Shown here: piece by piece, positions 21,022-62,088 of the stretch | Numbering within the stretch: the first letter of the stretch is position 1 | How the letters are laid out: every line of letters begins with the position of its first letter | Assembly (NCBI GenBank): GCA_050230475.1 | Contig: JBFLGF010000123.1 | Span: forward strand, 1 to 62,088 | Reading direction: 5' to 3' | Length of the DNA: 62,088 nucleotides | Source of the DNA: Ancylonema sp. | Taxonomy: Eukaryota | The notes under the pieces: model-generated | Told to the model about the DNA's origin: nothing | Databases searched by the model: none | Seen by the model: only the letters and a program-made list of their open reading frames with translations | Position numbers and translations under genes: made by a program

Positions 21022-21300
21022 CCTAGTACAGTCGATTGTTGCCTGGTCAAAGAATCTACTGGTATTGAAACTACTTCGTCAACTGCCAATCATATCTAAG
21101 CATTCTGCCACAACAACAAGTTCTTATCGACACTTGTACCAGATGGCCAAGTAATCATTGAAACAAGGACATCGGCCTGCAGCCGGCCTGCCGCCTGCCT
21201 GCAGCCTGCATTTGCTGAATAACGACAAAACTAAAGCTAAATTATTCCCGGTATTGCTAAAATCGATACGACAAAAGTTCACAGCCCCTAAAAACTAACA
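21022..21300 (-). mobile_element. Partial solo LTR of the copia family at 47090-51227
   Basis: Near-identical to 47247-47525 and 50945-51227, ending in ...cccctaaaaactaaca. Confidence 0.92.
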
Positions 21301-22398: not shown

Positions 22399-23933
22399 TC
22401 ATATTTCATATTGGGCTCCCATAAGGAACTTGTACTTGCTTGCATCACTTGCGAAATAGCTCTCCAGCTAGAACCACAACAAAAAAAAATAATGAGTCAG
22501 TCTCTCATGATGTGAGTAATAATCAGACGGATTGGGAGATTATGCGATGACTGTCCTGAACAAAATGCTACAATGGAGAACGCAAATGAAATAGCAAACA
22601 CATAACCTGGACAGGCTACATCCGAGTCCACGTAAATGATTTTTTTGACGAGCCACCTTGACGTTTACCTGTCGTGCGCTTACCTGTTGTGCGCTGAGAG
22701 GACATCATGTGCTTTCACATAGGGTAGTTGTGGACAAGATGTCGCTGTATAGATAAGATGTCCCTATATGTGATGGACAGAACGTCCCTGTACCACATGC
22801 AAGAACCAAGTACTCCGCATGCTGACAAAAAAAGGCAAAGTAAATGCGAATGCGAATGCGAATGCGAATGCGAATCCTGTTCATGGTTGAAGTTGGAGGG
22901 CTTGGCGAGGGCAAAGAGCAGACCTGAGGCAGAGCTGCGAAATGTTTCAGGAATGCGAGGATGTTGGGGCACGTGTCCAGGCTGCCTGGCACCAGAGTGC
23001 GCTGGAAGTCTGCAGTCTCGTACAAAAGAAATTCTGGCCACGTCAGCTTAGACCCTGAGGTAAACGCTATGTCGTCAAGGTACTCCTCAATGCGCTTGGC
23101 ATGGTAGAACCACTTCTCCTTCTCCGTGGCGATAATCTCTGCATGGTTTTCTTTGTATGGAACACCTGCGCGTGGATAAGGGCAAGTATGGAGAGGCAAT
23201 GAAGGCTCGAAAAGTGGTGAACTATAACGACACAAGTCTTCCTGGAAAAAGATTACCTGCTCGGTAGAAAGATAGTAGGTTGCACATTCATGTTTCATTT
23301 TTTTGCTTGCTTGCACTTTCAAGTCAGCTCAGCGTGTACCTCATCTTGTGGTTGATAACTGTACGAAAAATGAGCACACTTTGCTGCCACCAAGAGCATG
23401 CTCGGAATGATGGAATGCGATTTTTAGTCAGGGACGCTGTCTAATAGAGGGACACAATGAATAAAAAGGTCGGACCAGCTGGTCCAAAAAACTTGCGGTG
23501 ATTGCAACTGCGAATGCGATAAGATTTTGATTTTTTGAACGTATGACGATTACATACTTATGTAATAATAAACCAGCAGGTAGGGAGGAAATTTACCATA
23601 CATAGGGCACCTCCAGTCATTGAGGACGTCAGCGAACATATCCAGTGTTGCTGCCATCTGTGGTGTGGAGCCACCAAGACCAAACTTATTCCCAAGGTAC
23701 CGCAAAATGGCGAGACTCTGTGTGAGTTTGAAATCCCCGTCAATCAGGTAAGGCAGGTTCGGGACGTCCAGTCCAAGGTTGAATTTCTTATCACTCCACA
23801 CCAGCTCAGGGGGAGTATCATACGCCAAGTTGTCGAATTTGGCGTCTACAAAATGGAGTAACATGCGACTGGGAGCTCCCCATCCCCGGATGGACCAGTA
23901 ACCAAGCTGCATCGGTTTCGAATCCGTCGGCAT
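22399..23933 (-). CDS. Glutathione S-transferase, Mu-class-like
   Basis: Exons 23933-23597 (alternative ATG 23975), 23165-22924, 22467-22399. Motifs LGYWSIRG, KFNLGLDVPNLPYLIDGDFKLTQSLAILRYLG, KLTWPEFLLYE, FAALPQ|LESYFAS. Confidence 0.9.
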
Positions 23934-24248
23934 CTCTGCCAGCCTGACTTTTTTGTCGGGCCTCGATTCTGACATGAAATGGCAAGTCACAGAATTACGT
24001 GCAGACCTGTCGCAAACTCCTCCTTGATGCGGAGACTAGCAAATTCTCACAGTTCAAGATGTTGGTACGAAATGTCCAGACTTGAGCTCTTCAAGACACG
24101 TGGCGAGCTGATAGTGGCGGACTGTGAGCGTAATTCTGACGCTGAAACGGAGGCAGAATTTGTTGCTGACTTGCCGCTTTCTAGAAAGTCGGCATGCATG
24201 ACAGTTTCTGCCAAGATCCGGCAAAACGGCCGGGACGGGCAGAATGAC

Positions 24249-27791: not shown

Positions 27792-29427
27792 TCAAGAAAC
27801 AGATTGTGTTTCAGATGGCACTGGACAAGCCGGATCTTTGCCGACGTCGTCAGCAACGCCACCCTCGTTCCCAGCTCTCCTTGAGGTGCGCTTACATGCT
27901 CCTCCATAAGTTGAGACAGCCGACCTCTTCCTGGAAGAGTTTTCGAGGCTCTTGGCCTTCAGGGAGGAGGACCGGACTGGGCGCCGTAACCGAGCTGAGA
28001 CAACAGCATCCAAAACTCCCGGCTCCACACTCAAAGAAGATTCACCATGGACGCTCTGTTTCACCATTCTGCTGATACGCTCAATGTCCATCTCTTGCAC
28101 CGGCTTCAGTAAGAAATCCTCAGCACCTGTCTCTAAACACCTGCAGAAGCTTGCACAGAAGGGGTCAGGAAGACTAGATAGATTCGGAGTGCTGCAGCCT
28201 CCTCCAGAAAACTTCCAAGCATTCTTGACAGAATCATAAGACATACTGAATGATTCTTTCGTATCTGAACTTCACCCTAGCTGCTTTCTGCTGACTGGAG
28301 ATATGATATGCAGGACTTGCAATGCGTATTTCCTTGCAATATCCCACAGCACTGGTTAGGGGGACATGAAACAGAAGCCTGTGCATGAAGCTCACGGAAA
28401 CGCAAACGATGTCGCCTGGAGGGGTCTGCATGTTGTGTACCTGGTCACGTTTTCGCTGATGTTTTCGGAGGACATGATTACCATGGGTATTGCCCGGAAA
28501 CTTGCAACTTCCTGCAAAAGTAACACAACGACATTGAATTGCTGCCAGAGGAAGCATATAGCTTTCAGATACCGCCGGCAAGGCGGTTTGGTAGCGAGCT
28601 ACTGTGGTACCAACTAGCACCTCAAACCTCTAGTCATCCCCACAGATGTTCATGTAAGAAGAGGCAAAAACTCGATGTTGAATCGTATCTTTTAACGAAG
28701 ATTCTTGATAACGCGCAAAGACCTCTTGACCTTCTAAACTTCTATCCTTCTCAGGAGGATCCTTCAAGGGGCTTTCAGGGGGTGTCTCTAAACATTCCAA
28801 TCCGTCTCCGATCGCGGGGACATGATATGATACTCCTCATGTTACTGTTGTGGTGTAAAGTACCTTCACTCGCTTCAATAGCTCCTCTCCGCTCATTCCC
28901 GGCATGTGAAAGTCGCTAATGATCAAATGGAACGGAGGAGAGAACTGCCACCGAAGAGCCAACGTCCATATTAGCATTTCCTAATAAAGAGGCGATAGGC
29001 GCCTGCAACACCGGACATCAGACTACATCGCAATGACTGGCGTACCTGTTGTCCAGTGGAGCTGTCATTTGAAAGCCCAAGGAGCTCCAACGCTTTATAC
29101 GCACTGTTCGCACAAGTGACTGCAGTAGAACGAAAAAGATATCACTCAACTGCAAACAGGGCCCTTCAGGCAGACAGGAATATTAGATATTCGACAGTCT
29201 TACAGTTGTCTCACGGGGAGTGACGGAGTCGTTATTTGCCAGAAAACCCTACACTGATGCAACACCTGCAAAATCCGTCCAAAACAGCGGCTTCTACCTT
29301 TGTAAGCTTGACGTTGCAGCAATCGCACGACGAGCGTTCTGTCAAGCGTACTATCGTCCACTGCAAGTACACGAAGTTCTGGAAAAGACGTTGCACTCGG
29401 AGTCTCAACAAGAGCCATTGAGCGCAT
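27792..29427 (-). CDS. Type-A two-component response regulator (ARR-A-like receiver protein)
   Basis: Exons 29427-29298, 29119-29046, 28944-28864, 28511-28441, 28140-27792. Motifs VLAVDDSTLDR, ALELLGL, LIISDFHMPGMSGEELLKRVK, IPMVIMSSEN, CLETGAEDFLLKPV; short C-terminal tail with no Myb/GARP domain. Confidence 0.93.
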
Positions 29428-31728
29428 GTGCGTGGAAAAGCGTGCCTGCCTCTTCTGATAACTATGTCGGAAACAACTGGATCAGTCAGTCGATATGGTA
29501 AGCGCCATGTCGAGAGCTAACAGAGCATGAAGTCCGCTCCTTCAACAGTCTGTGTGGTGATGACAGGAACCACTAAATCAATAATGTATCAGTATCAACC
29601 ACGCTAGAGGCGAGGCACTGGGAGATACTAAATCGCCCCCTGAAACCCAAATCTGACACAATGGAAGGTAAAGATCGTCGAGTCAGCAAATCAAAAAACG
29701 CGGTGCAGGTTCAGATGAGCGTTTCAGATGGCTGGCCCGGACTTACGGGCACGCGGAACTGGCTGGATTTCGTCCATAGATTTGGTTCCAGCCGATTGCA
29801 TGACAACCGCGTTAGCGTTTGAAACGACGTGTGAACAGAACATCGACCGGAGAGCGGGCAGAGGAGGCCGGCGTTAGATTCTAGAGATCGATGCGATCTC
29901 GATTTGATTCTAGATGGTGCAATCTCGATCGTACTTCGAATATGCTTCAATGCATAGATGTACACGCCCGTAAAAATCTCCGCCGAGCGCCGCTTGCGGG
30001 CGGTCTCGCCCGCAGGCGAAACGCGGGCGAAAATGTCCACGCGGCGTGTAAAAAAAATAAAAAATGCTAATATCAACTACATGAAAAGAAAGACGCATTT
30101 TATTCAAGCACGATGGGAACCCCATCTGAGTACAACACCAACGTTATCGTACCAACCTAAAGGAACAGAAGAAGGAAAACAACCCCAATCCTAAAACAAT
30201 CGAGCAACAATCCTTAACTCTGCTGACGACAATAACACCTACATAGTTTCAACTACATCAACTACATAGTTTCAACTACATGATTTTTTTTCTTTTAAAG
30301 AATATCATAAAACATCTAGAAGCTATGCTTTTTTTAACTTGCTTTCTTGAAATCCCAAAATTCAGCGCGCCCGGCACGGGCGGCCGGGCGGCGCCCGCGG
30401 GCGGGTATATCAATGGTCCAAGCTGTGAAACGCTGAAAACGCTTCAGGCTGAATCGGTGTTGATATCGCGTCAGGTAACTGTCAGAGCTGTAGTTATTAC
30501 AATTGTACGGATAAGCAACGGACTTTGTAACGGACGAATGTTTTCCAGAATCAAGCTCCCAGCTCCCACGCAAATCTGTAAAATCCATATCACAAGTACT
30601 TATTTTAATATCTGCCACAAAAGGCGCACGTGCCATATGGACGCGTGAATTTGTACTGCATGTTTTGTTGTTGGTGAATTTCCTTGCACACGGTCCTTTG
30701 TCGTCTTGGAGAACCCTGTCTGGCACGATGTGCCCGATCAAATCTTACGTAGAATCTTCCGATACGCTGCCATATGGCAGGCATGTGGGAACGACGGATG
30801 AGGCGCAGCCACCGAGTCGGTAGCTGCGCCTCATCCGTCGTTCCGGGTCCCACGGTGGTGTGCCCGCTTCCGGCCAGGGCGCTTTTCTTAGAGTCGCAAC
30901 TCGATACACCGTTTGGGCACCGTATATGATTTCTCGAAACGATTTAAATTGTCAATGATACGTAAAAACGATTCCGGAAATCCGATAGTTATGATCAATG
31001 GTTTTCGGAAATGATCCCGGAAAAACTACATGTCAATTGAAACAAACAAAATGGAAAAAAAAAATGAATGAATGTCAATGATTTTGGGGAATGATTTTAC
31101 ATTTAGGTATTAGTTAAAATGATTGATTTCATATTTCAATAATTTATTAGAAGTTATTGTGGGTGCTGAGTGCATGGAATAGTCCTCATAGTTGTACGGT
31201 AACTTGTAACCCCCCTTAGGTTTCACGCCCGTCTCTGCATGCGGGCGAAGCGCCGGGAGGGCACGGCCCGGCCACTTCCTTAAGGACGGGCTGCATGTCG
31301 AGATTTCACCAGCCCAAAGACAAACCCAAGGGTGAAAGACATTGATACTTATAATTTTATCCATGCGCCGTACTCGTACATAATAAGAAACCTACTACGA
31401 TTCTTTCGCGCATGTGTCAAAACTCACTGGCGTGTTACGATGTTGAATAACAAAGAATTTTGCACAACCACACAAAGGGATACAAATAAAGAAGGGGATG
31501 CAATTAAAAAGAGGGAATCATGGCGTGGTGATAACTTTCAGATGTCACTAATAAGCCCTAGTATTTTGAAATGAAATCCATGCGACGTACGTGTATCACC
31601 ATAACTATACACACCATTGCTATACACTCATAAGTACAATCATTCTATCAGGTTGTGATCGTTGACAAATGATGGTTTGTGAGTGAATTCGGTCTAAGAG
31701 TGACTCTTGTTGTAATCAAGTTGCGTGC

Positions 31729-33806: not shown

Positions 33807-36800
33807 CTACACATTTTCCCTCCGCACTTCCTCCACGACCCTCGCTCCCACTCTATCCAGCGACCGCACACTTACAGTGGCTTGCAACTTCCCTTGTTGT
33901 AAGAACGCCTCTACCATGGCCTGCCCTATCACTTCCCCCTTCTCCACACTGTCTGTTATCGCTACCGACGTCGGCCCAGCTCCACTGATCGCGCACCCAT
34001 ACGCGCCCGTGACGCTCGCAGCAACTTTGACGGCGGAGCATCCGGGGATGAGTTGACTTCTTCGCGGCTCCACGATGAGATCGGAAGCTGCATCGAGCAA
34101 GACACGGCACGTGAATAACCGAACCTCTTCACATCTCTCCTTGTCAAGGTTTTGCATCCGGAGCTCTACATTCGTAACGGTACGGGGGACCATCATGATG
34201 CATTGCAATATTGCATATCCCAAACGAAAAACTCAGAACCCCCCCCATAAAACAGTAAAAAAGGGAGGGGGGGGCTTTGCCGAAAGATATATATATTGTT
34301 ATTGTTATTGTTATTGTTATATGCTATTTTTTTTGGACAGCGTTCTTTTAGAGAGGTTCCATTGTATAAAAAACCAGAGCGGGTCTTGCGGCGGGCCCAG
34401 ACAACTAGTATATATTGAACCAATGTAGCGTGGGATCCCCATCCTCCGATACCCACATCCACAACCCATTCCTGATCCTCAACTTTCTCCCACCGCCCTC
34501 GCAACGCACAAGAATTGCTTTCACTCACCCAACGCCGCCCCTAGCAAGCTCGCATTCCCCGTCAGTATTGCAGCAACCAGAGCCGCCGCTTGACTGCTGT
34601 TGGCCACGTGCGATTTCATACTCACCTACAACCCGCAAAGAGACAAAATGGTGGTCGATATTGAGCGTTGCATGCCTCCTTCGTACGGCGTCTTTAGAAC
34701 TCAAATCGTTTCCTGTACTGTCAAAATATTCTTATATCGAGGTTTGAGGGTTTGTACTCAACGGGTCGATTCCATACTATCGCACAAAGAAACTGGGGCC
34801 CCACTCTGTATGTACGATAGTGGTTTATATTCATCTCAGTTCTACTAGAAAGAATGAGTACACTACAAATAGTTTTCAGAGATGTAGGTTTTTTTTTTTG
34901 TTGTTCTTTTCACAAAAAGAACCCTCAAGGTCCCTCCCCACAAAAAGAATCCCCACACCCAACAACCCTAACAACCCTAACAATCTAACAATCTAACAAT
35001 CTAACAACCTAAAATCTAATTCTCCTATCCTAGTTCTGCGAACACCCCCCACCGACTACCACTTCCCCACACACCCAAATTTTTTATTTTGCAAAAAAAC
35101 GGAAAACCCCCCCAAGATCACTACCATCCTCAAGCACACAACCCTCCCCAACAACTTATCTCACACACACCCACTCAGGAGCGTTTGTGCATAAGCAAAT
35201 CCGTACATAACATATCTCTGATATTTCCAACATCAGCATCTCTGTGCGGGTAGCACAGCCCTCATCGCGAAAATGATAACATCATAACACAAAGCCAACA
35301 TAACATTATAACATCATATCATCATAACATCATATTACAAAGACATCATAACATCATAACATCATAAACTCAAAGACATCATAACATCATAACATCATTA
35401 CATCATAACGTCATAACATCATAACATCATAACATCATAACATCATACTACAAAGACAACATAACATCATAACACAAAGACAGCATAACATCATACCATG
35501 GTAACACCAAGACAACATAGCATAATAAGTCAAAGACCCACCTCAGTGGGTAGCGCGGCCCTCATGGCCTTGGTAGGCGCCTCAAACGCGGGCGTGGCGA
35601 CCACAAAGAAAAGGTCGCGGTCTTCCGGGTACGGTAACCGCAGAATCTCCAGGGGGTCGTAGCTGCGGATGAGCACAAACCCGCCCAGCAGAGCGGGTCC
35701 CACGTTATCCGCGTGATACCCGCTAACCGTGGCCTCGGATCGGAGACCCGCCACGACGAGGTCGTCTTTGGAGAGGGGGGAACCGAAGAGGGCATTCACC
35801 TGGAGACCAGGGATACCAGGGATGAGGGGGAAGGGGGGGGAGGTATAGTGAAACCTGTCTTCACTAATACTGTGCTGATGAATAACCTGTGTTGCTTATA
35901 GAATGACTTCCACCCGATTTCGGGTTATCATCAACCATTCTTGATTGATATTTTTTCCCGGTGATGACAGTATGAAATCAGTTAGGTTCGACTGTATATT
36001 GAATTAGAGGGATTTTGGGGGACACACACTGGTTGTTGTCTATTCTCCTTCCCACCAGTGTGATACAACTGTAGAACCGTCCACGGCACTGACCTGAATT
36101 CTAGACAGCCACACATGTCTGTCCTCTATATCCACCCCCCCCCCTCCCCCTCCCCCCCTCCCCCCATATCATGCCAGGTGGCGCCATCCTCACCGCACAG
36201 GCCGCGGCTGCCGCACTCGCCGCGCTGGACCCCAGCCCGCTGCCAAGCGGCAGACCCTTGTGCAACGTCAGTTCTACCCCCCACGATTTCACCCCCAGCA
36301 GCTCCAGGGTGGCCCCTGCAGCGATCCCCACGCAGTTGTCGCCAGCCTCAAGACTCAGTTTGCCGCCGTCGCCGGTGATGGATACGATGCGGACGCTACC
36401 CCCAGGGACGGAGTCGGACAGCTGGGCGGGGGGGGGGGGGGGGGGGCGCAGAGGGGAGGGAGGGAGGAAGAAGGGAGGGAGGGAGGGAGGAGGGGAGGGG
36501 AGGTGGGTGGGGAAGGGGGGGGGGGGGATGAGGGTGAATGTCGTATTGAGCGATATTGGGGAATGGGAGTGCAGGTCTGAACATAATCCGGACGAAACCA
36601 CAAGAGGTGTAGTTGAGTGCTCTAACCCTCAATACCACTTTCTGTGTGCGATGATGATTGTCATACTCGAAAATTGGAAACCCTAAAAACTCCAGGATTT
36701 TTAGTCGAAAGGACCTCCTACAGGGTTTTGAAAACCTTCGAGTTTCATCCCCTTGCTCGAGCAGTATCGCCCCCCCCAATGAGCCCAAATATTTGATCGA

Positions 36801-47089: not shown

Positions 47090-50000
47090 TGTGAGTGCTT
47101 TCTTCTGCCATCGATGCAAGAATAAAGCACAATTCTCTCAGACAACTCTTGAATCGACAGATCACGTCATTACAAACGTTCACACAACAAAAGTGCAACT
47201 TTGAAGTAGAAAAGTCTGATTACAGAATTCAGCATACAAGCTCAGACCTAGTACAGTCGATTGTTACCTGGTCAAAGAATCTACTGGTATTGAAACTACT
47301 TCGTCAACTGCCAATCATATCCAAGCATTCTGCCACATCAACTAGTTCTTATCGACACTTGTGCCAGATGGCCAAGCTAATCATTGAAACAAGGACATCG
47401 GCCTGCAGCCGGCCAGCAGCCTGCCTGCAGCCTGCATTTTCTAAATAACGACAAAACTAAAGCTAAATTCCCGGTATTGCTAAAATCGATATAACGACAA
47501 AAGTTCACAGCCCCAAAAACTAACACCCCCTCCCCGGGTACTTTTGTATTCCTCCAAAAACGATAACCAAAACGATATCGATTTTACAAAACATAAGTCG
47601 ACAAAAAACTCACTAAATAAACTGATCAATGAACCATCTACAATTATTTTGCATACACCAACCCCCCAGATCACAATTCTTCTTCAACGCCTTGAGAGAC
47701 AGTGGTTTTGTCAACATATCAGCACCTGGTCTTCATTCTTGACAAACTGAGACTGATCTTTTTCTTGGACACCCTCTCTCGAATGGAATGATACTTGATC
47801 TCGATGTGTTTGGAGCGACAGGATGTTGATCTCGATGTGTGTGGAGCGCTTGTGAAAAACAGGATTCTCAGCAAGATTCAAAGAACTCTCATTGTCTCCC
47901 AGCAATAGCACACCCCCCCCACCAAGACCCAACTCCTATTGCATCTGGCTCAAATAAATGGCCTCATTTCCAGCAGCACTCAGTGCCAAATACTCACTTT
48001 CACAGCTTGAGTGTGTACCACTTTTCCAGCTCACAACAGCTCCTCCACGAAGAAAGACATAGCCAGTTCTCCCCTTCCTAGTGTCGACGTCGTCACCATG
48101 ACTAGCATCTGAGTAGCCGATGACTGGCAAATCATCTTTTCTTATACATCAGCGCCCCAAATTGACAGTTCCCTTGAGATATCGCAAAACTCTCTTTACC
48201 CCCTCCCAATGCTTGTCCCCTGGCTGCTGACTGTATCGACACAAGGAGTTAACAGCAGCTGCCAGATCAGGTCTTGTTCTAGAAGTGAGATACAACAAAT
48301 TGCCCATTGCAGACTTGTAGCCCACACCCTCTATTCCAGCAGATTCAGAAGCAGATTCACAGTTTGCAGAAAATTTTACACCCAGCTCAAGAGGGGTAGC
48401 ATCATCAGGATACCATTCTGGAACAACTTCTAGATGATCTTCGTCTTCATCGCCTCCACTAGAATTGCTGACAAGTTCTGGAAGATTTGCACTCTGAGGA
48501 ATAGGGGATCTCGGTAGCTGTGGCAATAGATTTCCCACAGCATCAGGGATCTCTTCATCGACGGAATTTGGATCGTTATAGGCAGGTTGCCCACCTCTAG
48601 AAATGCCCCCTCCGAGACCAACACTACCCCCTCCTGCTCCTTGATCAGCTGCATCCAGATCTGGCCGTGACATTTTTGTTTCTGCAACTGGCTCATGCAC
48701 TCTTGCCTTCTTGCCAATTTTCTGCCCCCTCCACCAGCTTTGCTTGACAGATTCATCGAAGTCTGCATGACCAGTGCCAACGTTGTGTACTTTGTTCGTT
48801 GCAGGATCCCAGACTCGGTAGCAAGGACTGTCGGGATTCCATCCACCTAAAACACCAAGCCAAGCCAGCGCACTCATTTTCCCAGCCCGACACTCATTTT
48901 CCCAGCCCGATCTTGTTTGAGACGAGGAGCTGCATCTTCTTTGCTGCGAAGTATTTCCACCCAGGATTTTCGGCTGTATTCATCGACGAGCACCATGTTG
49001 TACACTGCTTCCCCTATTGATGGTGGATTGAACGGCCCTGCCAAGTCCACCGACACTCTTTTCACCAACTTCTCGTCGAGGATGAGGTTTGTCGTGTGCC
49101 TTCCCCAGCTTGCACCCTTCACAGTTTCGCAGAACTCTTGAGATGCCTCTTTTTAGTCCTCGTACAATATGTTGTCGTGCCACATTTTTTAGCACTCTCT
49201 CATTTGCATGCCCAAGTCTTGTGTGCAGGAGGTTGATTTCGACAGCAACTACAACAGCTTCCCCTTAAGTAAGTTGTTGATGTCGAACCGGTGTGCAGAT
49301 TAGAGTTTTTCGAACTGTCGATGTTTCTTGCAGAGTGCAAACTTGTTGTCCAGATTTTTTGTAAAGTGGAATGATGCCACCAGCTTTTCCACTGCAAGTG
49401 TAAGACCACCCTGCTTCTCTGGCTTTCTGACCGGTAAACAAATTAATGCGCATTGCAGGAATGTACAAACATTTCTTGAGTGTTACTCCTCCACACACTC
49501 CCTCAGTATTCAGCTCAATTGTTCCCCACTGCTTCACTCGCACACTTCCGACCAGATGATGCATGATGACCTCGTGTGGAATGTCTTCGATGATTTTGAA
49601 AAGATTTTTTATGCCCACAAGAATGGTGACTGGAACCATCGTCGAAAAGGAAATCTTTCTCTGCATCATCATCATCTGCAACATTTCCTTCACAAATTTT
49701 GGAGCAACGACAGCTTCTCCATGACCACAACTCTCCTCCTCATCGATTTCACCAACGAAAGCTATTTTTCTCCTAGTGCGTACCCCTTTTCTCCGTATTC
49801 GTGGAGCTTCGTTTTTCTTGTCGAAACATGTTAATTCCACATGACCAATGGCTCCACATCTGCATTCTTCGTTTTTCTTGGAGCAGTCTCTGCTGTAGTG
49901 ACCTGTCTCTCCACAAGTATAGCAGGAATGTCCTCCACTTGATCCATTGCCTCCACGTCTGCCTCCACGACCACCTATGATTCCACGATTATCTGCTAAA

Positions 50001-51227
50001 TACCCCCTGAATGTACCCCTGCCTCCACGATTGTCGATACCACCACCTCTGCCTTGGCTTTATTTTTTTTGTTGCGCTGACCACTTAGCATAGTTTGCCT
50101 CTACAACTAGTGCCTCAGCATCTTTGACATCTTTTTCTTTTTTGTCATCCAGCTCATCCATTCCCATTTGCCCCCAGATCCAGCTGATCCCAGGTGCCTC
50201 TTTCTGTCTATAGTAAAGCTTCTTCAACATGCCGTATTTTGTTCTTGACATGGCCAGCAAACAATGCCATCACCTGGTCTTCTGCGCTGACCTAGAAATT
50301 TTTTTTTATGTACACACTCTCTGATGATCGACAGAGAAATATTCTTGATTTCTCTATCTGGCATCTTTTCATCGATCTTGAAAGAGTTCAGCTTTTCTTT
50401 TGCAATCTGTCGAAGTTCTGGAGACACCTTGTCATACTCCTTTGTCAGATAGTCCCACATCGCCTTTGGATCTCGTTCAAATTGTTCAAGTGATGTAGCG
50501 ATGTCGTCACTGACAAGTTGCATGAGTAGCATGACTGCCTTCTTTGATCTTTTGCGGAAGCTTCGACATCAAGTGTATTCTGCTCCATTTCTGCTTCATT
50601 TGTTGGCCAGTGTTCATCATCATATCTGGCTGTAACCTCAGTTGGAATAGTCTCTGTTACTTTGCACATCTCAAGGCACTCAACATCATCAAGAGTAGCT
50701 GAGGCCTTAGATCTCCATGCTTGAAAGGTAACTTTATCTCCATCCAGAATGCAGTACCGTGCTCTGGATACCACTGTGAGTGCTTTCTTCTGCCATCGAT
50801 GCAAGAATAAAGCACAATTCTCTCTCAGACACAACTCTTGAATCGACATCGACAGACAGATCACGTCATTACAAACGTTGACACAACAAAAGTGCAAGTT
50901 TTGAAGTAGAAAAGTCTGATTACAGATTTCAGCATACAAGCAGACCTAGTACAGTCGTTTGTTGCCTGGTCAAAGAATCTATTGGTATCGAAACTACTTC
51001 GTCAACTGCCAATCATATCTAAGCATTCTGCCACATCAACTAGTTCTTTCTTATCGACACTTGTGCCAGATGGCCAAGTAATCATTGAAACAAGGACATC
51101 GGCCTGCACCGCAGCCGGCCTGCAGCCTGCCTGCAGCCTGCATTTGCTGAATAACGACAAAACTAAAGCTCCCGGTATTGCTAAAATCGATATAACGACA
51201 AAAATTCACAGCCCCTAAAAACTAACA
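47090..51227 (-). mobile_element. Ty1/copia LTR retrotransposon, degenerate internal-deletion derivative
   Basis: LTRs 47090-47525 and 50775-51227 (TG...CA), 5-bp TSD GTCTG, PBS TGGTATCCAGAGC (50773-50761), PPT GGGGAGGGGG (47535-47526). Copia-order remnants: gag zinc knuckle CYTCGETGHYSRDC, protease FDDGSSHH, integrase LHTRLGH/VSVDLAGP, RT end YKSAMGNLLYL..TRPDLA, RNase H GYSDASH/SCESEY/DNES; many frameshifts. Confidence 0.96.
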
Positions 51228-53420
51228 GTCTGGCCTTCCATAAATCACGGCGCTGAACGTGCGTCGACTAATGACGTGTTTCTGATCCAGAGTGTCGATC
51301 GTTATTTCCAGTCGTTCCGTCCTGAATGAAGTGGTGATATGATTGACATCGACCGGTAACGTGATTTCACGTGTAACAACTTGCCTTGTCTTGTAATCAT
51401 GCGATTGGTTCTACGTCCGTAACAACCTAGACTTTTCGAGAATGCACGAAGTAGTTCCAAATTTGTTGGTTTGAAGATCATTTGAATTTCCATAATGTGA
51501 ACCAAAGTCAGGCATATTGATCGAACCCCGCCCAATGCACTAACTACAGGTGTCACCTGATCTACAAGCCCTGGAAAATATGACGAGACGTGCCGATACC
51601 CTCGAGCAATCTCTCTTGCACTTGAAAACATTTTTTATCGTTTGCATGTTGTATGTACTTCTCGTCGGTGCATTTAGTGGTGTCTCTGAAGCCCAACCCT
51701 CTGGAGGGCAGACATTTGCGACCTTCTACGGACAAATAAATGGCGATGGCAGCGACGGTAAATCCACATCAACCTTCAAAAGTGCAGTTAGTATGTACCT
51801 CTACGGATAAAGATATATCTTTTTTGGTAACAGCTTCATCTGTAATTCGATCGATAGCATCCAACCAAAAATAAAATCAAAAATAAAATCAGGAAACTAC
51901 CGCCTCTACCACCTCTATCATACGCCGGTATATTCTCCGTCAGGTTAAGAGTGCTACTAAAAGTCGAAGAACAAGTTGTGTTGTAATCGAAGGATATTTG
52001 ATGGCACCCGGTTGGAGGACCTAATTACTTCGGTAATTAAAAAAAAAAAAAAAACGGATTGTTTAAAATCGATAACTGCATGTTTCTCAGGCTGGAATTC
52101 ACGTTCCTCTGTGTGACAGGTGGTGCTTGTGGTTAGGGTCCACTCCTATCCACACCGTACGGAGCTCTGATCGCGGCTGGAAGTCCGCCAATTTACAACA
52201 ATGGTCTAGGCTGCGGCGCATGCTACTTGGTATAACCAGAAATCCTGCGGGTCAGGGATACATTCACACGTTAGTTTTTGTGTTCAGTGACCAGCTGACG
52301 GAGCGCACGTTACCTCAATTAAATATGCGACGATTTTTGCTTTTTGAATACAGACACAATGTCTCGACAAAAGTCTCTGCTCGACTACGCCAACACTGGT
52401 CGCCATTACAGATTTGTGTCCTGGTGATCAGTATTGCGGCAACAATCAAGTGGCGTTTGATTCGAGCGGCGCATCAAATGGATCGCCTGCCGTGACGGGA
52501 CAAGCTGACAATTTGCAGCAGTTAGGAGTGTTGAATATTTCGTACACGAGGTATTTTCCTGATATCTTTTTGGCTTTGATACATGCGGGTATCTTTTTTA
52601 CTTTCATTTGCATAGATGTCCGGCTGCAACTATACCACTTTCCGGCGCCTTTTATCACACCAGAGGAATCAGTACGTGGTCCACTTTCTCGCTCGCAAAA
52701 ATATATGCAGTTCAATATAATTCAGCATGCTTAGAATATCGAGCATTGAGGACCAAAACCAGCTTCACCGATTTCCGCAGGGCCCCATGCCGTTTTGGAG
52801 CAAGCGCCCTAGCGATACAAATCCGCAGAGGAAGTAATAATTATTATCTCTCCCTCGTGCCGATCGGAGGTGCCGGTCCTGGTGCCATTTCGGGACCGGC
52901 CATTAAATCGGTGAGCGCTCATTTCATCGTTCAGTCACCGCCATCATATTACTAAACGACGGTGAGTCATAATTCAATGCAACGGCTCTTTTTACCTGAC
53001 TTGTAATCCTCCATCATCATCGAAACTTGTCCTTCTTCGATGATGATTGAAACGTGTAATCTTATCCTGTTTCATGTACTGTGATTCTCACCTCGTCTGT
53101 ACGAATTGCAGGCGATTTCGAACACCCTCATCCAACTCTCCAAGGACTTCGGAGCGTCGTATGTGTTGAACGGTTATCAGCAAGGACCGTACACGGTCCA
53201 GCGTTGACAGGTATGCCAGTTCTACGCATGCGCGACATACCACGACTACGGTCAGGGACTGGAAATCGCTTACAACGTACAACGCACACCTTGAAGCGGC
53301 AAAATGACATCATCGAACTGTGTCTCCATGCAGGGGAGATTATTACATGCAGGAACCTTCTCCCCCAGGACTTTTCAGGCTCTGGGAAATATTAGGTCTC
53401 ATTCCAAGAGACCTAAGTTT

Positions 53421-56314
53421 CACCAGTTGCTTTCGGATGGTTGAAATAATCTGACATGGACCGTACTTCTGTACGATTCTGTCCACGTCAGGTCGCTCCG
53501 GGGTCTGTGATTGGCTGATTCTGCCGGGTTTGACGATTTTGATATTTTGTAGAGTTTGGATGACATGTCACTGCTGACATGTCGTGCTGTGATTGGCTGA
53601 TTTTCGCGTTTTCGCGTTTTTGCGGTGGAAAATTTTGCGTGAGATTCTCTCCCAATTCTGGGGGTTGGAGCTATTTCATGTGTGTTAGGCCCCCTACTAC
53701 AACCCTTCCATGCCTTAATATTGTCTATCTCTACCCTCATCCCTGTGGGATGTGCGATTATGTGTTGGAAGGAGAATGGAGGGCGATCAGAACCCCTTCC
53801 CTCATTTTCTTTCCAACACATAGTACGGATTTATTATCACTTATGTGAGCCACCGAGTGCTTTCGGAGGCGCTCTAGCTGAAGCTTTCGAAAGAAACTAG
53901 AATAAAGGAAAACGGTTTTTGATCTAATATTTTGTCGTACACTTATATCATATGTTTTCTATTTAACACAATTTCAATTTCGATTAGAAGGCTGGTTGTC
54001 TGGCTCGCCGGCTGGCTGGCTAGTTGGTTGACTGGCTGTGTGGTACATACCATAATTGCACGGACCGGCGGACCGGGGTCCCGAGGTCCCGACTCCGGAC
54101 CGAGGTCCGTCCTTTTGGGTCAAAAATCCGGACCGGCTGTTTAGGGTAATATCGATTTTTGGGGGTTTTAAGGTATTTTCCGTGGAGAAAAAACTCCGGA
54201 AGTATTTTTTTCGCTAGTAAATTGATATTTCACATCTTGTAAAAAATGTCAAATGAATATTAGACCTATCAAATAAGTAATCAAAACCTGCAATATATCT
54301 TTGTAGATGCGTTTTTCACCACTTTCAAGAGATATCACTTCGGGAAATGCTATAGGACATTTGGAATGGTTACAAGTACTACATTTTTTTTTTCATGTTC
54401 CATAGGTTACAATGTAATTATGAAATGATGCTCATGTGAGGCTCAAGAAAATGTGATGAAGGTTTACCGTATCATGGAATTAAATAAGATTAGAAACACA
54501 TATATCAAACATCATCCTGAATTTTTTTTCCACGCTCACAACCTTGTATTCAACCTTATCTCCACCTTTCAAATACATTCCTCACTTCTCACTTTCCTAT
54601 TCTACATAAATAAATGGGTAACTTCCCTATCTAAACTTTACTTACCGCATCAAAATCTCCTCGCTTACAACTTTATACTTATATAAAACGGAAAGAAAAA
54701 CGTTACCTTCTACACCCACAATTTTTGTTATATTTTTACACCCAACATTCTTCACTATCTACATCACCTTTAATAACCTCCCTCTCCCCACTTCCCGCTC
54801 CTCACTTGTCACTCCCCAAAAATCTTTCCCGACTCCGAATAACACATTTCCAAGTACCTACTTACACCAAAAGCCATTTTGTCGATTTTGAATTTCACCA
54901 TTCAATCGATGGACGGTTGGATACGAACGATACTATAGATTATTATTTATTTTTTAAATTTCGCAACAACTTCGCAAGTCACAAATGACACATGTATTCA
55001 CACGTGTGAGGTACACAAAAAAAAATGAAGCCGCACGTCCTTTTTCCCCGCGGAAAAATTGCGTGGCAAAAAAACCCTAAAAGTCCCCGGTCCGACCGGG
55101 TCCCGACTCGGGACCCGGTCCGACCGCGGTCCCGAACATCCACCACTGTTGCCGGTCCGTGCAACTATGGTACAGACATCTGCACGATATATCCCGTTGG
55201 ACCTCAGAACCAGAATGAATTTGAATCTGAATAATTTTGGCCTCGCGCAATCTTGACGCAGAGAGAAAAGATATTGCATAAGAGGCCAGACATATTAGCC
55301 ACAGAGTGCGAGACACAAAGTGTGAGAGCGAGAGTTAGAGAGAGGGCGACAGGTGACTAGCTGGCCGGATAGCTAGCTGGCTGGCTGGCTAGCTGGCTTG
55401 ATAGTTGGTTGGCTGACTGGCTCTATGGCTGGCTGGCTGCCTGGTCGCAATCGCAAATCGCATCGGTAGTGGCAGGCGCAGTCGCAAACACCGCAATTTG
55501 TCTAAAAATCCGTTGGTCGCTTTGCGTATACCTTTGTTCGCTGGCTGACTGGCTGCATGGCTGGCTGGTTGGCTGGTAGCAGTCGCAGGCGCAGTCGCAA
55601 GAGAGAGGCACATGCTTGTGCTCGCAAGTCGCCTGTGTGGAAGTCATAGATGCATCGACAAGTGTGCACAACCGGTTTCTAAACTGGGGTTGGTCTCTCC
55701 AGATTACGATAGAAGTGAATATAAATATTTGAATCTGCACTGAAATAGACAGAAATAGAAACACATCATATTTGATATGGGAGAGGTGAGGAGCGCAGAC
55801 CTGCACTTCTGTCGTCTACGGTATTGCATACTTCGTACTTCAGGGGGGAGCTATCAGTGGCAAAACGAAATTCGCAGTCTCAAAACCCGTCAAGTTTGCT
55901 GAGCGCTTACCTTTACCCTCTAGTTGGCTGACAAATGGCTGATTGGCAGTCGCAGTCGCAGGCTGGTTGGCTTGCAGTCGCAGTCGCCAGTCGCCAATTG
56001 CAGTCGCAACCTCCGTTCCGCTCGCTCAGGGGTGGTGCTGTTGACAGCTGCTGAAATTGTTATCGTTTCAAGAACGCTAGAATTGCATTAAAACGTACTG
56101 CGATACTGGGTAACTTTCTTCGACATCGCTCACAGCTCGGATATGGTAGTGGTGATGAGCTGCAATGGCGAGATTGGCCGGCACAATTGACGGCGACTAC
56201 CCCTAACGGCCGACGCCGCACGTCCGCCGACCGGTAGCAATTTAACAGCCCAATAAACCCGGCGACAGGACACAGGGCACAGGCCACCCAATCTTAAAAA
56301 AATAAATAACCTTA
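53421..56314. mobile_element. Unclassified 2.9-kb insertion flanked by a 12-bp direct repeat
   Basis: AGACCTAAGTTT at 53409-53420 and 56315-56326; A-rich right end; internal GGCT and GTCGCA repeats. Confidence 0.6.
54051..55169. mobile_element. Non-autonomous hAT element (nested)
   Basis: TIR CATAATTGCACGGACCGGC / GCCGGTCCGTGCAACTATG; TSD GTACATAC / GTACAGAC (7/8); subterminal GGACCG repeats. Confidence 0.9.
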
Positions 56315-59300
56315 AGACCTAAGTTTGACGGTCACGACCGGATCTTGTTATCCCTGCGGCAGTCAGTTTAGTTCATTTTCCTCCACCTCCCCTCCACCGG
56401 CACCGTCCCCCTCGCGACCGCCCCCGCCAGCCCCGCGACCAACCTCCCCAGCCTCGCAGGCTACTTTTCCACCGCCGCAGCCGCCGCCTCTAGCGTCTCC
56501 TCCCCCTCCGCCACATGCCAACTCTCCTCCTCCACCTCGTGCCAGTCCACCACCTCCCAGTCCTTCACCCGCACAAATTATTGCCCCTCCTCCGCCTGGA
56601 AGCCAATCACCACCTCCGATATCGACAATACCACCTCCTCTAAAAGTGCAAGGTAAGTAGCAAGTAGTAATAAATGGTCAGAATTGTCACTAAAGTAAAA
56701 ACAACAATAATTGTAATAACAATAATAGTGATGATAATAGTAATGATAGTAATATAAACAAGAATAGTAATACAAGTTATGTTAGTGATAGTACGATCTC
56801 ACGGTTTTAGTACCTCACATTCCGGTAGTGGGTGCAACACCTTGGGAATCAGTTTACAAAATAATTTTGAAGTTTTTTGGTTTGTTTTTCAGGTGCGGTC
56901 ATCGTCATACCTCAAGAATTCATAACCAGCTACCCTTCGGGTTCCACAACAATCTCGCAGTTCAGACTCGTAGTTACGAATATTGGCTCCGTCCCCACAC
57001 AAACAATTGTTTTTCAAGCTTTCAATTACAATCCTCTTTCTTCTTAGAATTTCGTTGGTCTAGGAGGCGGTTATTATTCTCCCCCAACATGGTTATTTCC
57101 TTTTCAGCCCGGTCAGGTATACGTCGATGCCGGGTACCAAAACCCGACCGGTCAAGCAACATTTAAAGTTACATAAGATGTGACCAAGTACCCGTGACGA
57201 CCATCAATGTGTTGAACTTCAATTATGCAAAGGGGCTGGCTGTTTCGAAGGCTTAATGTTCGGCTATATCAGTGTACTTGTGAACAACTCGTTTTGTTGG
57301 GTATTTTTAGTGTCCGCAACTTTGCGGCCACGACGATTGTCGATGCTATGACAGCCAATTATTTAGAGCCCAAAGATAACAGGCTGATCATGTCGGTGAA
57401 TTTTTAGTCGGTTGGGTGCACGTATCGCCCAATGGTGACAACCTCCACGCTTCGCTTTAGTAAACCACTTTAAACCACTTTTCGAATATGAATTGTCGTG
57501 TTTACGTAGGAAGATCTAGTAGACGTGATGTGGAAGACGTTTCACCACGTGTTGATACGAATTGCCATCTAAGTAGAATCGACATAGTACTCTATTTTAT
57601 CGTTACGATAGGTGTTTATTTTGATAACCGGGATTCGTGATTGGCGGACAAGGACAAGGAATATACGTTAACCATAGCACTACTTTACGTGTCAGTTTTA
57701 TGTGTCGTTCGTGTTTTATATGTTCGATTGTCATGGCATTGTGTTGTGATTGTTTCAAGTATAAAAATGTTTTAAACAAAAACATTTGAAGTAAAAGTCC
57801 GCCTATCGATATAATTAAAATTCAACATTCACAACAACCTATGGTGCGATGAGCTTACCTGAAAAACCCGATATTTTTTGAATCCACAATTTAGCGCTCA
57901 CGTGGAGACGATGAACTCATGAGGGTGTGATATCTAATCGGAAAAAATGATATTTCAAAAGGAAATTTGTAAAAAAGAACAAGCCGAGCTCCAACCGGAA
58001 ATGGATTTGAGTTTGTTAGTTTTGATGCAAATTGTTTTTTTGCACCCACGATGTGAGGACAGATAAGTCGATCCCGCGTGCGAATATCCAACGTCGTCCG
58101 CTCTTGGCTCACTTTTCAGCTAAATCAGATCTCCATGACTAGGTTTTCAAAACCCTTTCGACGCTGTCATGCCGTTTTGAGATCGTTGGACCAATTCTTT
58201 TTATGTAATGACTAAGCGCTAAAAATATGTGAGTTCTAACGATTTTTAGTCGCTTAATGAACTTGTTCTTACTTGTTTTTGTTCAAGTGATCAATTGTAG
58301 CGCAGTTGTAAGAAAAAAATATGTTTGAAAGAGTTAAGCACCTAAGGTTGGTGTATCAATTTCCACATGTTAGTTCAAGGTTTTGTAGCTTATCGATATT
58401 TTCGACGATTTAAGTGTGCGCAAAACACAACTATTAATCTTGACTCTCAGAATCATCGATGATTTATTGCACGTGCTATTTATACATCCTATTCAAGAGT
58501 CAAAGTTTTAAGATCAATCGAGAAGTATTGGCAGCCTTCGCGATTTTCAAGAAGCGGTGCTTCGATTGTTTCAAAGCAAAGTTACCGCTCTCGATTGACG
58601 TTGTCTGCTTTTCAAGTTTTTGGCCTGTATTTGTTAGAAGAAATCTCTTTGAATTTCCTTGCAATCGTTTAGCTCATGTAATCTCTTCCTTTGTACCATT
58701 TGACGTTCTAGTATCCATCAATCGTCGCATCGTTTTATTGACTTGAGATTTGTTTCATTGTTTGTTACTGCTGTTGGTTATTGAACAAATTACCAAGTGC
58801 AAGTTTGCACGTAAGCCGTTCGTGTTTTTTCATTTTAATTTTATGAGTCGTCTTTACCTTTGGCGATACCTTCGCGAATTTTGTTACTAGCCGTTCCGTT
58901 GACGTCATAACATCGTAAAGATTTAAAAACTTGGATATTTCGCGTGTTTCGCGTGTGTGTTGCGTGCATATTATATCCATCGAATGTGCTACACTCCTTT
59001 GGTTGTTTGTTGACTAGTGCTTTACATCGATTGTTAGTTGTACCGTATCGCGTAACATGAAGATCACTCCTTTTTTTGTGAACACATTTGTCTAAGTTCA
59101 TCGGCTGCTTTCCTTGACGTTTTTCTTTGCAGTTGTCTCGTGTTATGAACTTCCAGGTCCCCCATTCGGCTAATCCTACGTTGCTAACATAGACCTCACC
59201 GATTCCATCTAAATCCGTTGCGGAAACGGTTCGACTCGCCACCAAGCACACTTATCAATAACTCAAGAATACAAGAAGAAAAGAAGACATTAAAAACCAA

Positions 59301-60350: not shown

Positions 60351-60434
60351 GTACCAGTGGTCTAATGGTAGAATAGTACCCTGCCATCCGATGTCAGAGC
60401 GGTACAGATCCGGGTTCGATTCCCGGCTGGTACA
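60351..60434 (+). tRNA. trnG-GCC: tRNA-Gly(GCC) with 13-nt intron (60387-60399)
   Basis: Acceptor stem GTACCAG/CTGGTAC, anticodon arm GTACC-CT-GCC-A[intron]C-GGTAC, T arm CCGGG-TTCGATT-CCCGG, oligo-T terminator at 60438. Confidence 0.93.
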
Positions 60435-60598
60435 GCCTTTTTATTTTTGTAGACCTTTGTAAAAAACGAATCTTTCCGGTTGTCGGAGTTGGCAGAGCCA
60501 CCGACGTGCCAGCTGGCGCCTGCGTTGACCTCATCCTAAAATGGGGGTCGTCCACGGAGGGTATATATATTTACGAAATCAGCCCTCCCACTACAGGC

Positions 60599-62088
60599 AT
60601 GGCTGCCTGTAGCCGCTCCAGTTTCTGCTCCCTATCTGCATGCCGATCATTCTCCGCCCCCACATGTCGGCTAACACAGCAGCAGTGGAAGCTAGCTGCA
60701 CGAGACGGATGTTGTGTTAATCAGGCTCGCAGGAAGCACGGTCTGCCGAGGTGGATAAATTCTTGTGTTCGTGCAAACTCGCGGCCGTCATGTGCAGCCG
60801 CTGAGCCGCAAAACGGATCGCACGCTACGACAAAGTTTCTATTGTCGCTGTCTTCCGTGGTGATAGACAGCATCATCCATTTGTCGGAGATGACTGGTTC
60901 TGTACGGAGCACGGCTATGAAGCAGGCGATTAGCTTCTTACTGCTTATGACCTTGACATTTTTCCAAGTGAACCCCTCTCTGGCGCTTGTCGAACTTGGA
61001 GACGCTCAAAAGGCGGAGTTGATCAAGGCGCAGGACGCCTACATTCGAGCAACAGCTCGCGAGGACCTTTCTCTCGAAGACGACGCGCTGCTGGAAGCCA
61101 GTCCCGAGCCGGAGCAAGTAGCTTTCCTTGAACGACTAGTTATATTCCTTTTATGCATCGTGCATGGTGCACATGATGTTCTACACTATGCAATGTCTGT
61201 ACGAAGACAGGACGTGCCTTCCACGGTCACTTCGTCCCTACATTCTAATATAATGAAAGAGCTGGACAACGAACGCGACGAATGCACATTAGCACTCACC
61301 AAAAGCTCCTCTGGACAGGGCAGTAACCAACTCTCGGTGTGCTTGTGCAATGTGCGCCCTGTTTCATCAGGTCCACGTCGGCATGGCCGGCCCAAACAAG
61401 GTTCAGGTCACGTGGGTGACCAGCGACCCTTCTGCCACCTCCCGTGTTCAGTTCGGGACCAAACCCGGGGTCTATGACCAGGAAGCAGAAGGCTCCAGCG
61501 AGACCTACACCTACCTTCTCTACAGGTCACTCTCTATGCCCTCAACTGTATGTGGCTGCCACTTGGCGATGTACACTCACACCTTTATATAAGAAACTCA
61601 CAAAATTCGTAAAGAGTTCGTCTCTTAATCGTTTTTTACAGCGAATGTTTCTAACATGTATCGCATTTTGTGTGTAAAGAGGCCAAAAAAAAATGTAAGA
61701 TAGTTTCTTATAGCAAAAAGTTTCTTTTAACGAAGTTTCTTATATCGAAGTTTGAGTGTAACGTGATTTGTGTTTAACGTGATTTTCTGAAGAGGAGGAT
61801 AATAAGCACTGAAAATGGAGGTTGAACAACCACTGCGGAACATCCACCATACTTTTTCCACATTTTTTTTCAGACAGCCATACTCACCTCTATCAACCAC
61901 AAATTGAGCACCGTGACATCAGGAAAACGGGCACATAAGCAGACCAGATTCTCATTTTCTTTATCCCTGTACCCCCTCCAGGAAGCTGACCACCCCCCCC
62001 CTCCCCCTGTCAGGCGACCTCGGCCAGACGGGTTGGTCTGTTTCCACTCTAGAGCACCTGGAGCAGAACCCGCACGACCTCGTCATCA
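60599..62088 (+). CDS. PAP: Purple acid phosphatase, 5' part (runs off window)
   Basis: Exons 60599 (or 60917)-61117, 61371-61525, 62014->62088. Motifs PEQ|VHV, VTWVT, VQFG..PG.Y, GDLGQTGWS.STLEH. The expected intervening exon was not found. Confidence 0.85.
61572..61760. mobile_element. MITE family D in PAP intron
   Basis: TIR tacactcacacctttatataagaaact / agtttcttatatcgaagtttgagtgta. Confidence 0.8.

Follow-up and report, generated by a model that had tools for sequence, protein, structure and literature searches.

A decayed expansin gene of the streptophyte alga Ancylonema that very probably once encoded a Ser/Pro-rich linker and a C-terminal CBM49-like module

Introduction

Expansins joined to an extra carbohydrate-binding module are represented by fungal swollenin, which carries a CBM1 module at its N-terminus, and by bacterial CBM2/GH5-expansin fusions. 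CBM-appended expansins have been discussed in the context of fungi and bacteria, whose proteins target host walls. The excerpted text of a preprint on microbial expansins gives such fusions for 49 of the 491 microbial species with expansins and contains no occurrence of CBM49 (10.1101/637728). CBM49, which shares the CBM2 fold, is instead the C-terminal module of class C GH9 endoglucanases such as SlCel9C1, AtGH9C1 and ME000032S05484 from Mesotaenium (P0003 in the following), in which a GH9 hydrolase is followed by a Pro-rich linker and then by the module. According to an excerpt of the work on AtGH9C1, the entire module resides in the last exon, binds crystalline cellulose and targets the enzyme within the wall (PMC3500288).

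In algae, the expansin MdEXP2 from Micrasterias has a long C-terminal extension, which consists of a second DPBB_1 domain (residues 302-385; PMC3191482), and the role of algal expansins is listed among the open questions in the excerpted part of a review (PMC10762512). The domain combination CBM49;DPBB_1;Expansin_C is already present in a published supplementary table, where it is assigned to 13 genes in five of 16 genomes, all of them from Klebsormidium or Zygnema (K. nitens one, Z. cf. cylindricum five and three strains of Z. circumcarinatum three, two and two), and to none in the other 11 genomes, which include three land plants as well as Chara (PMC11096116 supplementary file 5, sheets 4f and 4m). 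The main text of this Zygnema genome paper does not contain the term 'CBM' and leaves the combination uncommented (PMC11096116). Our literature search, which mostly covered journals outside subscription, yielded no text describing an expansin-linker-CBM49 fusion.

Here, we analyzed a stretch of 62,088 nucleotides from Ancylonema sp. (contig JBFLGF010000123.1 of assembly GCA_050230475.1, forward strand; 'the window'), for which a prediction made from the letters alone had proposed an expansin fused via a Pro-rich linker to a probable CBM49 module. We are confident that the locus is a dead copy of a real gene of this kind, lesioned and yet one gene.

Results

The expansin part is spread over six exons on the forward strand. 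Exon 1 (51580..51757) begins with the ATG at 51580, specifies a predicted signal peptide (Kyte-Doolittle peak of 3.1 at residues 19-29, the hydrophobic core being defined by this measure only) and the motif ATFYG, and ends in a phase-1 donor. Exon 2 (52120..52229) contributes the GGACG and CGACY motifs and the Cys pattern of expansin domain 1. This exon alone matches Pfam DPBB_1 with E=0.0063, which is under the cut-off. It also aligns with 2hcz, 1n10 and 7xc8; all three PDB matches of the expansin part are beta-expansins, with 2hcz scoring best (E=1.8e-5; range to 3.8e-4). When compared by eye over 35 ungapped residues, exon 2 shares 22 identical positions with CbEXP8 from Chara braunii, 20 with PpEXPB1 from Physcomitrium and 16 with 2hcz from maize. 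The remainder of the double-psi barrel is encoded by exon 3 (52354..52550), which includes TDLCP and, where HFD is expected, AFD; Phe and Asp are retained and His is replaced by Ala, just as in PpEXPB1. The sole PDB match of exon 3 is maize beta-expansin 2hcz (E=0.056), and the nearest Atlas clusters are of the Barwin/DPBB_1 type with scores of at most 0.89, which we regard as a lead only.

Exon 4 (52781..52910, with GT-AG boundaries) spans the domain linker with its R-x-P-C motif and the start of domain 2, where a second, weak stretch aligns with 2hcz and 1n10. The middle of domain 2 falls into exon 5 (53112..53210), which was set by eye against alignments of algal expansins (PMC13493406 supplement 1), and the left part of exon 6 (53334..53387, right boundary ± ~15 nt) continues to the P-x-x-F turn. 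Pfam Expansin_C (domain 2, CBM63) was matched neither by single exons nor by the read-through of exons 4-5; by eye, the domain 2 motifs match published expansin alignments, and D-F-G-A occurs here as in CbEXP8 and CbEXP11. Word-seeded protein searches confirmed none of 87 candidates for exon 3 and none of 14 for exon 2, results that carry little weight, and metagenome scans confirmed none of 597 and none of 372 pattern matches. Four of the five introns in the expansin part lie at what we take to be the positions of the EXPB introns A, C, B and F, and one is extra; CbEXP8, in contrast, has introns A and B only. That pattern is named in the same study in which algal expansins, including CbEXP8 and CbEXP11, fall outside both EXPA and EXPB (PMC13493406). 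The designation 'Expansin-B-like' is apt as a description of resemblance, but not as a statement of membership.

The end of the expansin is found almost 3 kb downstream. In the right part of exon 6 (56329..56369), the last strand of domain 2 closes with the canonical expansin C-terminal motif G-x-x-Y-x-C-x-x-Q-F (56340-56369), a pattern with which moss and algal expansins likewise end, and no stop codon follows. Among the 124,172 positions in all six frames of the window, the strict form G..Y.[SC]..[QN]F occurs once, at 56340, and a looser pattern five times; because the motif was written after the sequence had been seen, the single occurrence somewhat overstates its rarity. The reading frame is open from 56316 and runs through this motif and the linker to the donor AAG/GTAAGT at 56653. 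Because the end motif shares its frame with the Pro-rich stretch and is not followed by a stop, expansin end and linker most likely formed a single exon that was later split. Of the exon proposed originally for the Pro-rich region (56363-56652), the frame (56364-56651) and the donor hold, whereas the acceptor at 56363 is probably superfluous; a phase-2 GT donor that could serve it is not present in exon 6 ahead of the next stop. The linker (56370..56652, phase-1 donor) comprises 94 residues (56370-56651) with 46% Pro and five Ser-Pro3-5 motifs, and resembles in character that of Mesotaenium GH9C (39% Pro, three SPPPP motifs). The intron between linker and last exon is clean, with phase 1 on both sides and an acceptor before 56893, in agreement with the predicted phase match.

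Between the two parts of exon 6 lies a repeat-laden segment of ~2.9 kb (53388..56326, boundary not fixed), probably a transposon-derived insertion, inside which a nested MITE-like element (54048..55172) is bounded by terminal inverted repeats of 22 nt that are 95% complementary. A 15-nt direct repeat at 53409 and 56315 (14/15 identical), matched by just two of 2,981 random zone pairs, suggests that the two sides were formerly adjacent, and exon 6 would have been continuous before the insertion. The best pair of inverted ends, chosen blind to frame, reaches 10/12 with a 2-nt flanking duplication and restores the frame; it was rejected as proof of the boundary, as the same 10/12 was attained by 64 of 296 random pairs.

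Alternatively, two neighbours could be present: a two-domain expansin that ends with the TAA at 53414-16 and, ~3 kb downstream, an orphan linker plus CBM49, the 3' end of either a GH9C-type gene or a stand-alone CBM gene. On the left side, a Y-x-x-x-x-Q ending closed by TAA indeed makes a passable C-terminus, a candidate AG acceptor is available at 56362, and linker and module strongly resemble the GH9C tail of P0003. This reading, however, requires a further in-frame TAG at 53393, and its ending matches the expansin end motif worse than the right side does. Furthermore, the direct repeat suggests that the gap is an insertion, a hydrophobicity screen revealed no signal-peptide-like ATG frame on the plus strand of 53420-56362, and annotations of five algal genomes contain the fused combination. 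A GH9 catalytic domain is absent from the window: tblastn with P0003 matches the CBM exon (E=1e-6) and otherwise returns E>5 throughout, by which a GH9C remnant at the locus was rejected. We therefore consider two neighbouring genes highly improbable. The reading as one gene, with the last strand of the expansin in frame with the linker, bears out the original prediction. Within the window, tblastn and blastn uncovered neither another expansin nor another CBM copy.

The last exon (56893..57176, terminal TAA at 57174-76) reads as originally quoted, including its premature TAG (57045-47). Its best Pfam family is CBM49 (PF09478; E=0.0023, model positions 2-73 of 80) with 18.6 bits, which is below the gathering score of 23.4 for a query carrying X at a conserved Trp; DUF7194 is a close second (E=0.005), and the module of Mesotaenium GH9C also remains below the CBM49 cut-off (21.8 bits). 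A phmmer search against 1.84 billion proteins gave four matches, three of which carry CBM49, Mesotaenium GH9C among them; the fourth (P0004, DUF7507/DUF11) was left out of alignments as unrelated. With the Mesotaenium module, BLASTP shows 29 of 82 residues to be identical. A PDB sequence search with the exon returned a single, unrelated match (E=0.054), a word-seeded protein search confirmed none of 90 candidates, again weak evidence, and CBM1 was not matched in Pfam by any exon.

An AlphaFold model of the module (pLDDT 80.9) has a predicted CBM2-type beta-sandwich fold: VIA lists CBM2-type folds at the top, with Z scores of 8.3 to 3ndy_E (rmsd 2.6, 89 residues) and 7.7 to 1exg_A, ~8 being near the background of the tool, and the top rows in Foldseek are likewise CBM2-type, all with E>0.001. 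As CBM49 homologs were part of the alignment used for folding, the model lends no independent support to CBM49. Tyr13 and Trp66 are present in the module, and position 51 is the stop codon where four of four aligned homologs have Trp; the three positions may correspond to the binding triad (PMC11423589). When the Mesotaenium module was searched in Atlas, with GH9 clusters skipped and clusters of at least 50 members covered, the matches were bacterial CBM2/CBM49 clusters (scores of at most 0.88) and included no expansin cluster. Family assignment, CBM49-bearing matches and fold together back the original reading of this exon as CBM49.

At least four lesions make this copy a pseudogene: TAG stops stand at a conserved Tyr and a conserved Trp position, the frame is shifted once, and ~2.9 kb of sequence are inserted. 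The first TAG (52134-36) lies within the GGACGY motif, where expansins carry Tyr, and the second (57045-47) replaces the shared Trp of the last exon. At the end of exon 5, a TGA (53205-07) appears in the exon frame, and the exon ends in phase 0 while exon 6 begins in phase 1; the frameshift near 53202 is probably a short deletion. The original prediction had recognized the stop in the last exon and made no mention of the TAG in exon 2, the frameshift or the repeats.

Could the gene be alive, its breaks reflecting assembly errors or a non-standard code? GT-AG ends are kept at all six introns, so decay is not advanced. However, two TAG substitutions that affect different residues, together with an indel and a nested repeat of 2.9 kb, do not amount to one type of error. 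Recoding of stop codons was rejected, because the two TAGs replace different residues and an open frame of 1,974 codons in the window contains 70 codons for Gln, 69 for Tyr and 11 for Trp, but no TAG. A live gene is consequently the least credible of the explanations considered, and we give it hardly any weight.

Discussion

The ancestral product was most likely encoded by a single gene and would have comprised a secreted expansin, a Ser/Pro-rich linker and a C-terminal CBM49-like module. From the known biology of such parts, it is predicted that the protein was secreted, that O-glycosylation of Hyp stiffened the Ser-Pro linker, that a flat aromatic face bound cellulose and that the protein caused wall creep; the module would likely hold the expansin on cellulose during non-hydrolytic wall loosening. 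We consider cellulose-tethered wall loosening a reasonably likely function of intact versions. Taken as a whole, the one-gene pseudogene together with its explanation as a cellulose tether appears probable to us.

A competing explanation likewise assumes one gene, and sees in the tail mainly a hydroxyproline-rich glycomodule or spacer of the chimeric extensin-like type, with a CBM whose ligand is a non-crystalline glucan or a hemicellulose, or whose role is confined to localising the protein, without boosting loosening on cellulose. The five Ser-Pro motifs of the linker, the score of the module under the CBM49 cut-off and Tyr at its first aromatic position are in line with this idea; in addition, the CBM49 of AtGH9C1 is suggested to recognise another form of glucan than tomato CBM49 (PMC3500288, excerpt), and long chimeric extensins are noted in green algae (PMC10762512, excerpt). 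Because the linker lacks Tyr, however, the extensin cross-link motif is absent, and three aromatic columns, one of which is now the stop, appear to be common to the module and its CBM49 homologs. We regard this explanation as rather unlikely and favour the cellulose tether.

Among described proteins, the class C GH9 endoglucanases match the locus in the order of linker and C-terminal CBM49 and in the placement of the module in one last exon; the N-terminal part is an expansin here and a GH9 hydrolase there. Since Mesotaenium GH9C has a similar linker and module and the CBM49 of AtGH9C1 occupies a single last exon, a class C GH9 gene may have been the source of linker and CBM exon. With swollenin and the bacterial fusions the locus shares the principle of an expansin with an additional carbohydrate-binding module, so that 'swollenin-like' is acceptable as an analogy, but the CBM family differs, the CBM2/49-type module sits at the other protein end from that of swollenin, and plant-type introns and a predicted action on the own wall set the gene apart from microbial CBM-expansins. 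The gene is presumably of algal origin. MdEXP2 resembles it in having an extension, composed of DPBB_1 rather than CBM49. In Chara, where no fusion is tabulated, the scaffolds of CbEXP8 and CbEXP11 bear gene models of 268 and 245 aa, too short to accommodate a CBM.

The closest counterparts are Zci_11758.1 and Zci_12192.1 from Zygnema and the gene from K. nitens, which combine in one gene model the three Pfam domains predicted for this locus; these are table rows of automatic gene models with domain names in alphabetical order, and thus putative homologues with a presumed domain order and linker, whereas the Ancylonema copy is broken. Long candidates for the K. nitens gene are kfl00728_0080 (394 aa), kfl00857_0040 (527 aa) and kfl00036_0270 (885 aa). 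The table nevertheless supports the originally suggested existence of a wider algal family. More tentatively, and with doubts outweighing our confidence, we propose an old, undescribed family of streptophyte algae that originated from class C GH9 through exon shuffling prior to the split of Klebsormidium and Zygnema, persisted in filamentous algae but disappeared from land plants, and would be the plant-lineage counterpart of swollenin, targeting loosening to crystalline cellulose.

With the Ancylonema copy being a pseudogene, the interest rests on the family. Expansin surveys whose alignments are cut off at the final Phe of domain 2 would overlook CBM tails. The named candidate genes from Zygnema and Klebsormidium make a comparison of creep and localisation with and without the CBM direct, and a green-lineage version based on the native plant CBM49 would demonstrate that algae related to land plants equipped expansin with a cellulose anchor as well.

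Structure of the disrupted expansin gene

The expansin-like locus at 51580-57176 (+) is a pseudogene with a conceptual product of about 457 aa. Its exons, rebuilt from the sequence, lie on the plus strand at 51580-51757, 52120-52229, 52354-52550, 52781-52910, 53112-53210 and from 53334 onward (exons 1 to 6), followed by the CBM49-like last exon at 56893-57176. Each of the six introns is of the GT-AG type and 123-362 nt long, and splice phases agree at every junction except that of exons 5 and 6. The Pro-rich stretch is joined to the last exon by an intron in phase 1 whose donor matches the consensus, and both of these parts were verified in the rebuilt gene as originally quoted. The lesions comprise a TAG at 52134 (+) at a Tyr position, a frameshift near 53202 (+), a putative insertion splitting exon 6, and a TAG at 57045 (+) at a Trp position. 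Stop-codon recoding is an unlikely explanation for the TAGs.

Exon 2 matched Pfam DPBB_1 (E=0.0063), and a PDB search with a read-through of the frame with exons 2, 4 and 5 returned three chains, all of them beta-expansins (top 2hcz, E=1.8e-5). Exon 3 searched alone matched 2hcz weakly, and no match to Pfam Expansin_C appeared when the expansin part was searched in pieces. Four introns occupy what we take to be the positions of introns A, C, B and F. This is the ancestral EXPB pattern according to the sections of PMC13493406 used here, which also place algal expansins outside EXPA and EXPB; we therefore term the expansin part EXPB-like only, such that the label 'Expansin-B-like' holds for similarity and not for membership. 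By eye, the nearest sequences among the alignment excerpts of PMC13493406 supplement 1 are Chara CbEXP8/11 and moss PpEXPB1.

Connection of the expansin part with the tail

Because 3 kb of repeats separates the two halves, it was questionable whether the tail is part of the same gene. From 56316 on, the reading frame in which the Pro-rich stretch lies has no stop, and it contains, at 56340-56369, G-x-x-Y-x-C-x-x-Q-F, the C-terminal pattern of moss and algal expansins in the excerpts of PMC13493406 supplement 1. No stop follows its Phe, and the frame continues through the linker as far as the donor (56653). In its strict form the pattern is found once among the 124,172 six-frame positions of the window and, in a looser form, five times, counts to be read in the light of the pattern having been composed with the sequence already known. 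A 15-nt direct repeat (14/15 identical) is present at both gap ends; among 2,981 random zone pairs, 2 matched this level of identity. Of the inverted-end pairs sought without regard to frame, the best one (53388/56326) would bring the frame back; its score is equaled by 64 of 296 random pairs and the insertion boundary is therefore tentative. Within the gap lie a MITE-like element and microsatellites, and neither a signal-peptide-like frame on the plus strand nor a GH9 was found in it. An alternative reading of the left side lets the expansin end at TAA 53414, but the motif is then poorer and a further TAG is encountered en route. The in-frame pattern, the uninterrupted frame and the flanking repeat uphold the predicted assignment of the tail to the expansin gene, and we conclude from the sequence that expansin end and linker probably formed one exon, exon 6, before an insertion split it.

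The C-terminal module

The top Pfam family for the last exon was CBM49 (E=0.0023; 18.6 bits, below the cut-off of 23.4), followed by DUF7194 (E=0.005). A phmmer search of 1.84 billion representative proteins (threshold E<=0.001) yielded four matches, none of them an expansin fusion. Three carry CBM49: one protein is unnamed, one is a GH5 of Clastostelium, and one is a GH9 of Mesotaenium that also has a Pro-rich linker. The last of these, together with the expansin similarities, suggests that the source organism is probably a streptophyte alga. A Trp common to all four aligned homologs is the site of the premature stop. The AlphaFold model, built on a 5-sequence alignment, is a beta-sandwich (pLDDT 80.9) that in structure most closely matches modules of the CBM2 type (Foldseek E 0.015-0.07; VIA: Z 8.3, rmsd 2.6, 89 residues). 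Taken alone, these scores are middling, and the modeled fold agrees with the sequence evidence for CBM49. Best family, three of four phmmer matches and fold favor the original prediction of a 'probable CBM49', while the score stays under the Pfam cut-off.

Occurrence in other algae and relation to known proteins

The predicted wider algal family gained support from the portions of PMC11096116 supplementary file 5 used here, where the combination CBM49;DPBB_1;Expansin_C is tabulated for K. nitens and Zygnema genes (Zci_11758.1 and Zci_12192.1 are listed under all three domains). It is counted once in K. nitens, five times in SAG 698-1a, three times in UTEX 1559 and twice each in UTEX 1560 and SAG 698-1b, which makes 13 genes in all; 5 of the 16 genomes have it, and three of these five are strains of one species. 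The same portions give zero for Chlamydomonas, Volvox, Mesostigma, Chlorokybus, Chara, Spirogloea, Mesotaenium, Penium, Marchantia, Physcomitrium and Arabidopsis; these may be undercounts, because diverged CBM49s score below the Pfam cut-off. CBM49 as such is expanded in Zygnema (16, 9, 9 and 8 genes vs 0-4 in the other seven algae; sheet 4b), with 6-8 GH9-CBM49 genes per Zygnema genome in the portions used. The main text of PMC11096116 has no occurrence of 'CBM', and in the accessible content of nine of its files 'CBM49' and 'expansin' are confined to file 5. Excerpts of Table S2 of PMC11547041 list several long algal expansins of up to 885 aa, and the passages of that paper used here give no account of their extra parts.

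The proposed likeness to swollenin holds for a working mode predicted by analogy and not for membership, as the locus belongs neither to the swollenins nor to the CBM2-expansins treated in the preprint 10.1101/637728, the consulted sections of which do not mention CBM49. The C-terminal extension of MdEXP2 is, in the relevant part of PMC3191482, a second DPBB domain. 'Expansin' does not occur in PMC5977491 on CBM49 evolution, and PMC4755413 names CBM49 solely within a reference. No text describing an expansin-CBM49 fusion was found in the literature, with subscription reviews and bioRxiv supplements outside the search. The architecture is already tabulated yet apparently uncharacterised.

Surroundings of the locus

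A degraded Copia-like LTR retrotransposon (47090-51227, -) terminates some 350 nt before the ATG of the expansin gene; its LTRs (47090-47525 and 50775-51227) are 90% identical and enclose zinc knuckle, Pol_BBD and SH3_retrovirus domains, and a partial solo copy lies at 21022-21300. A filamin/Ig-like repeat frame (665-6586, -; 1,973 aa, eight Filamin stretches, E=4e-55) is located in a block of 60-68% GC vs ~45% in the remaining window. A spliced glutathione S-transferase gene (22705-24035, -) encodes GST_N and GST_C, with an N-terminus that we take to be mu-class, a class that to our knowledge is unexpected in land plants. A multi-exon GHMP kinase gene (33807-36628, -) probably encodes homoserine kinase. 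ARAGORN called an 84-nt tRNA-Arg(CCG) at 60351-60434 (+) with Gly-like arms and a 13-nt extra piece; this could be a tRNA-Gly interrupted by an intron, or the head of a SINE. The frame at 60918-61140 (+), within an ORF at 60377-61477, opens with a signal-peptide-like stretch and has no Pfam match; nor does 27792-28271 (-), which by eye resembles a response-regulator receiver C-terminus. A polyketide-cyclase/START-like exon lies at 30334-30744 (-; E=0.0075).

Proposed function of intact proteins

Overall, the predicted feature is real and its interpretation largely right, though this copy is dead. The tether mechanism proposed for intact relatives is based on the binding of crystalline cellulose by CBM49, which localizes AtGH9C1 in the wall (PMC3500288), on the three-aromatic arrays that mediate cellulose binding in CBM2 and CBM49 (PMC11423589) and on expansin action as the basis for slippage without hydrolysis (PMC10095946), each as given in the sections used. 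By analogy, intact expansin-CBM49 proteins would be secreted and would bind cellulose via the aromatic face of CBM49. Ser/Pro linkers are subject to glycosylation, and a stiff, probably glycosylated Ser/Pro arm would let the expansin reach adjacent load-bearing contacts, where its domains would facilitate slippage without hydrolysis.
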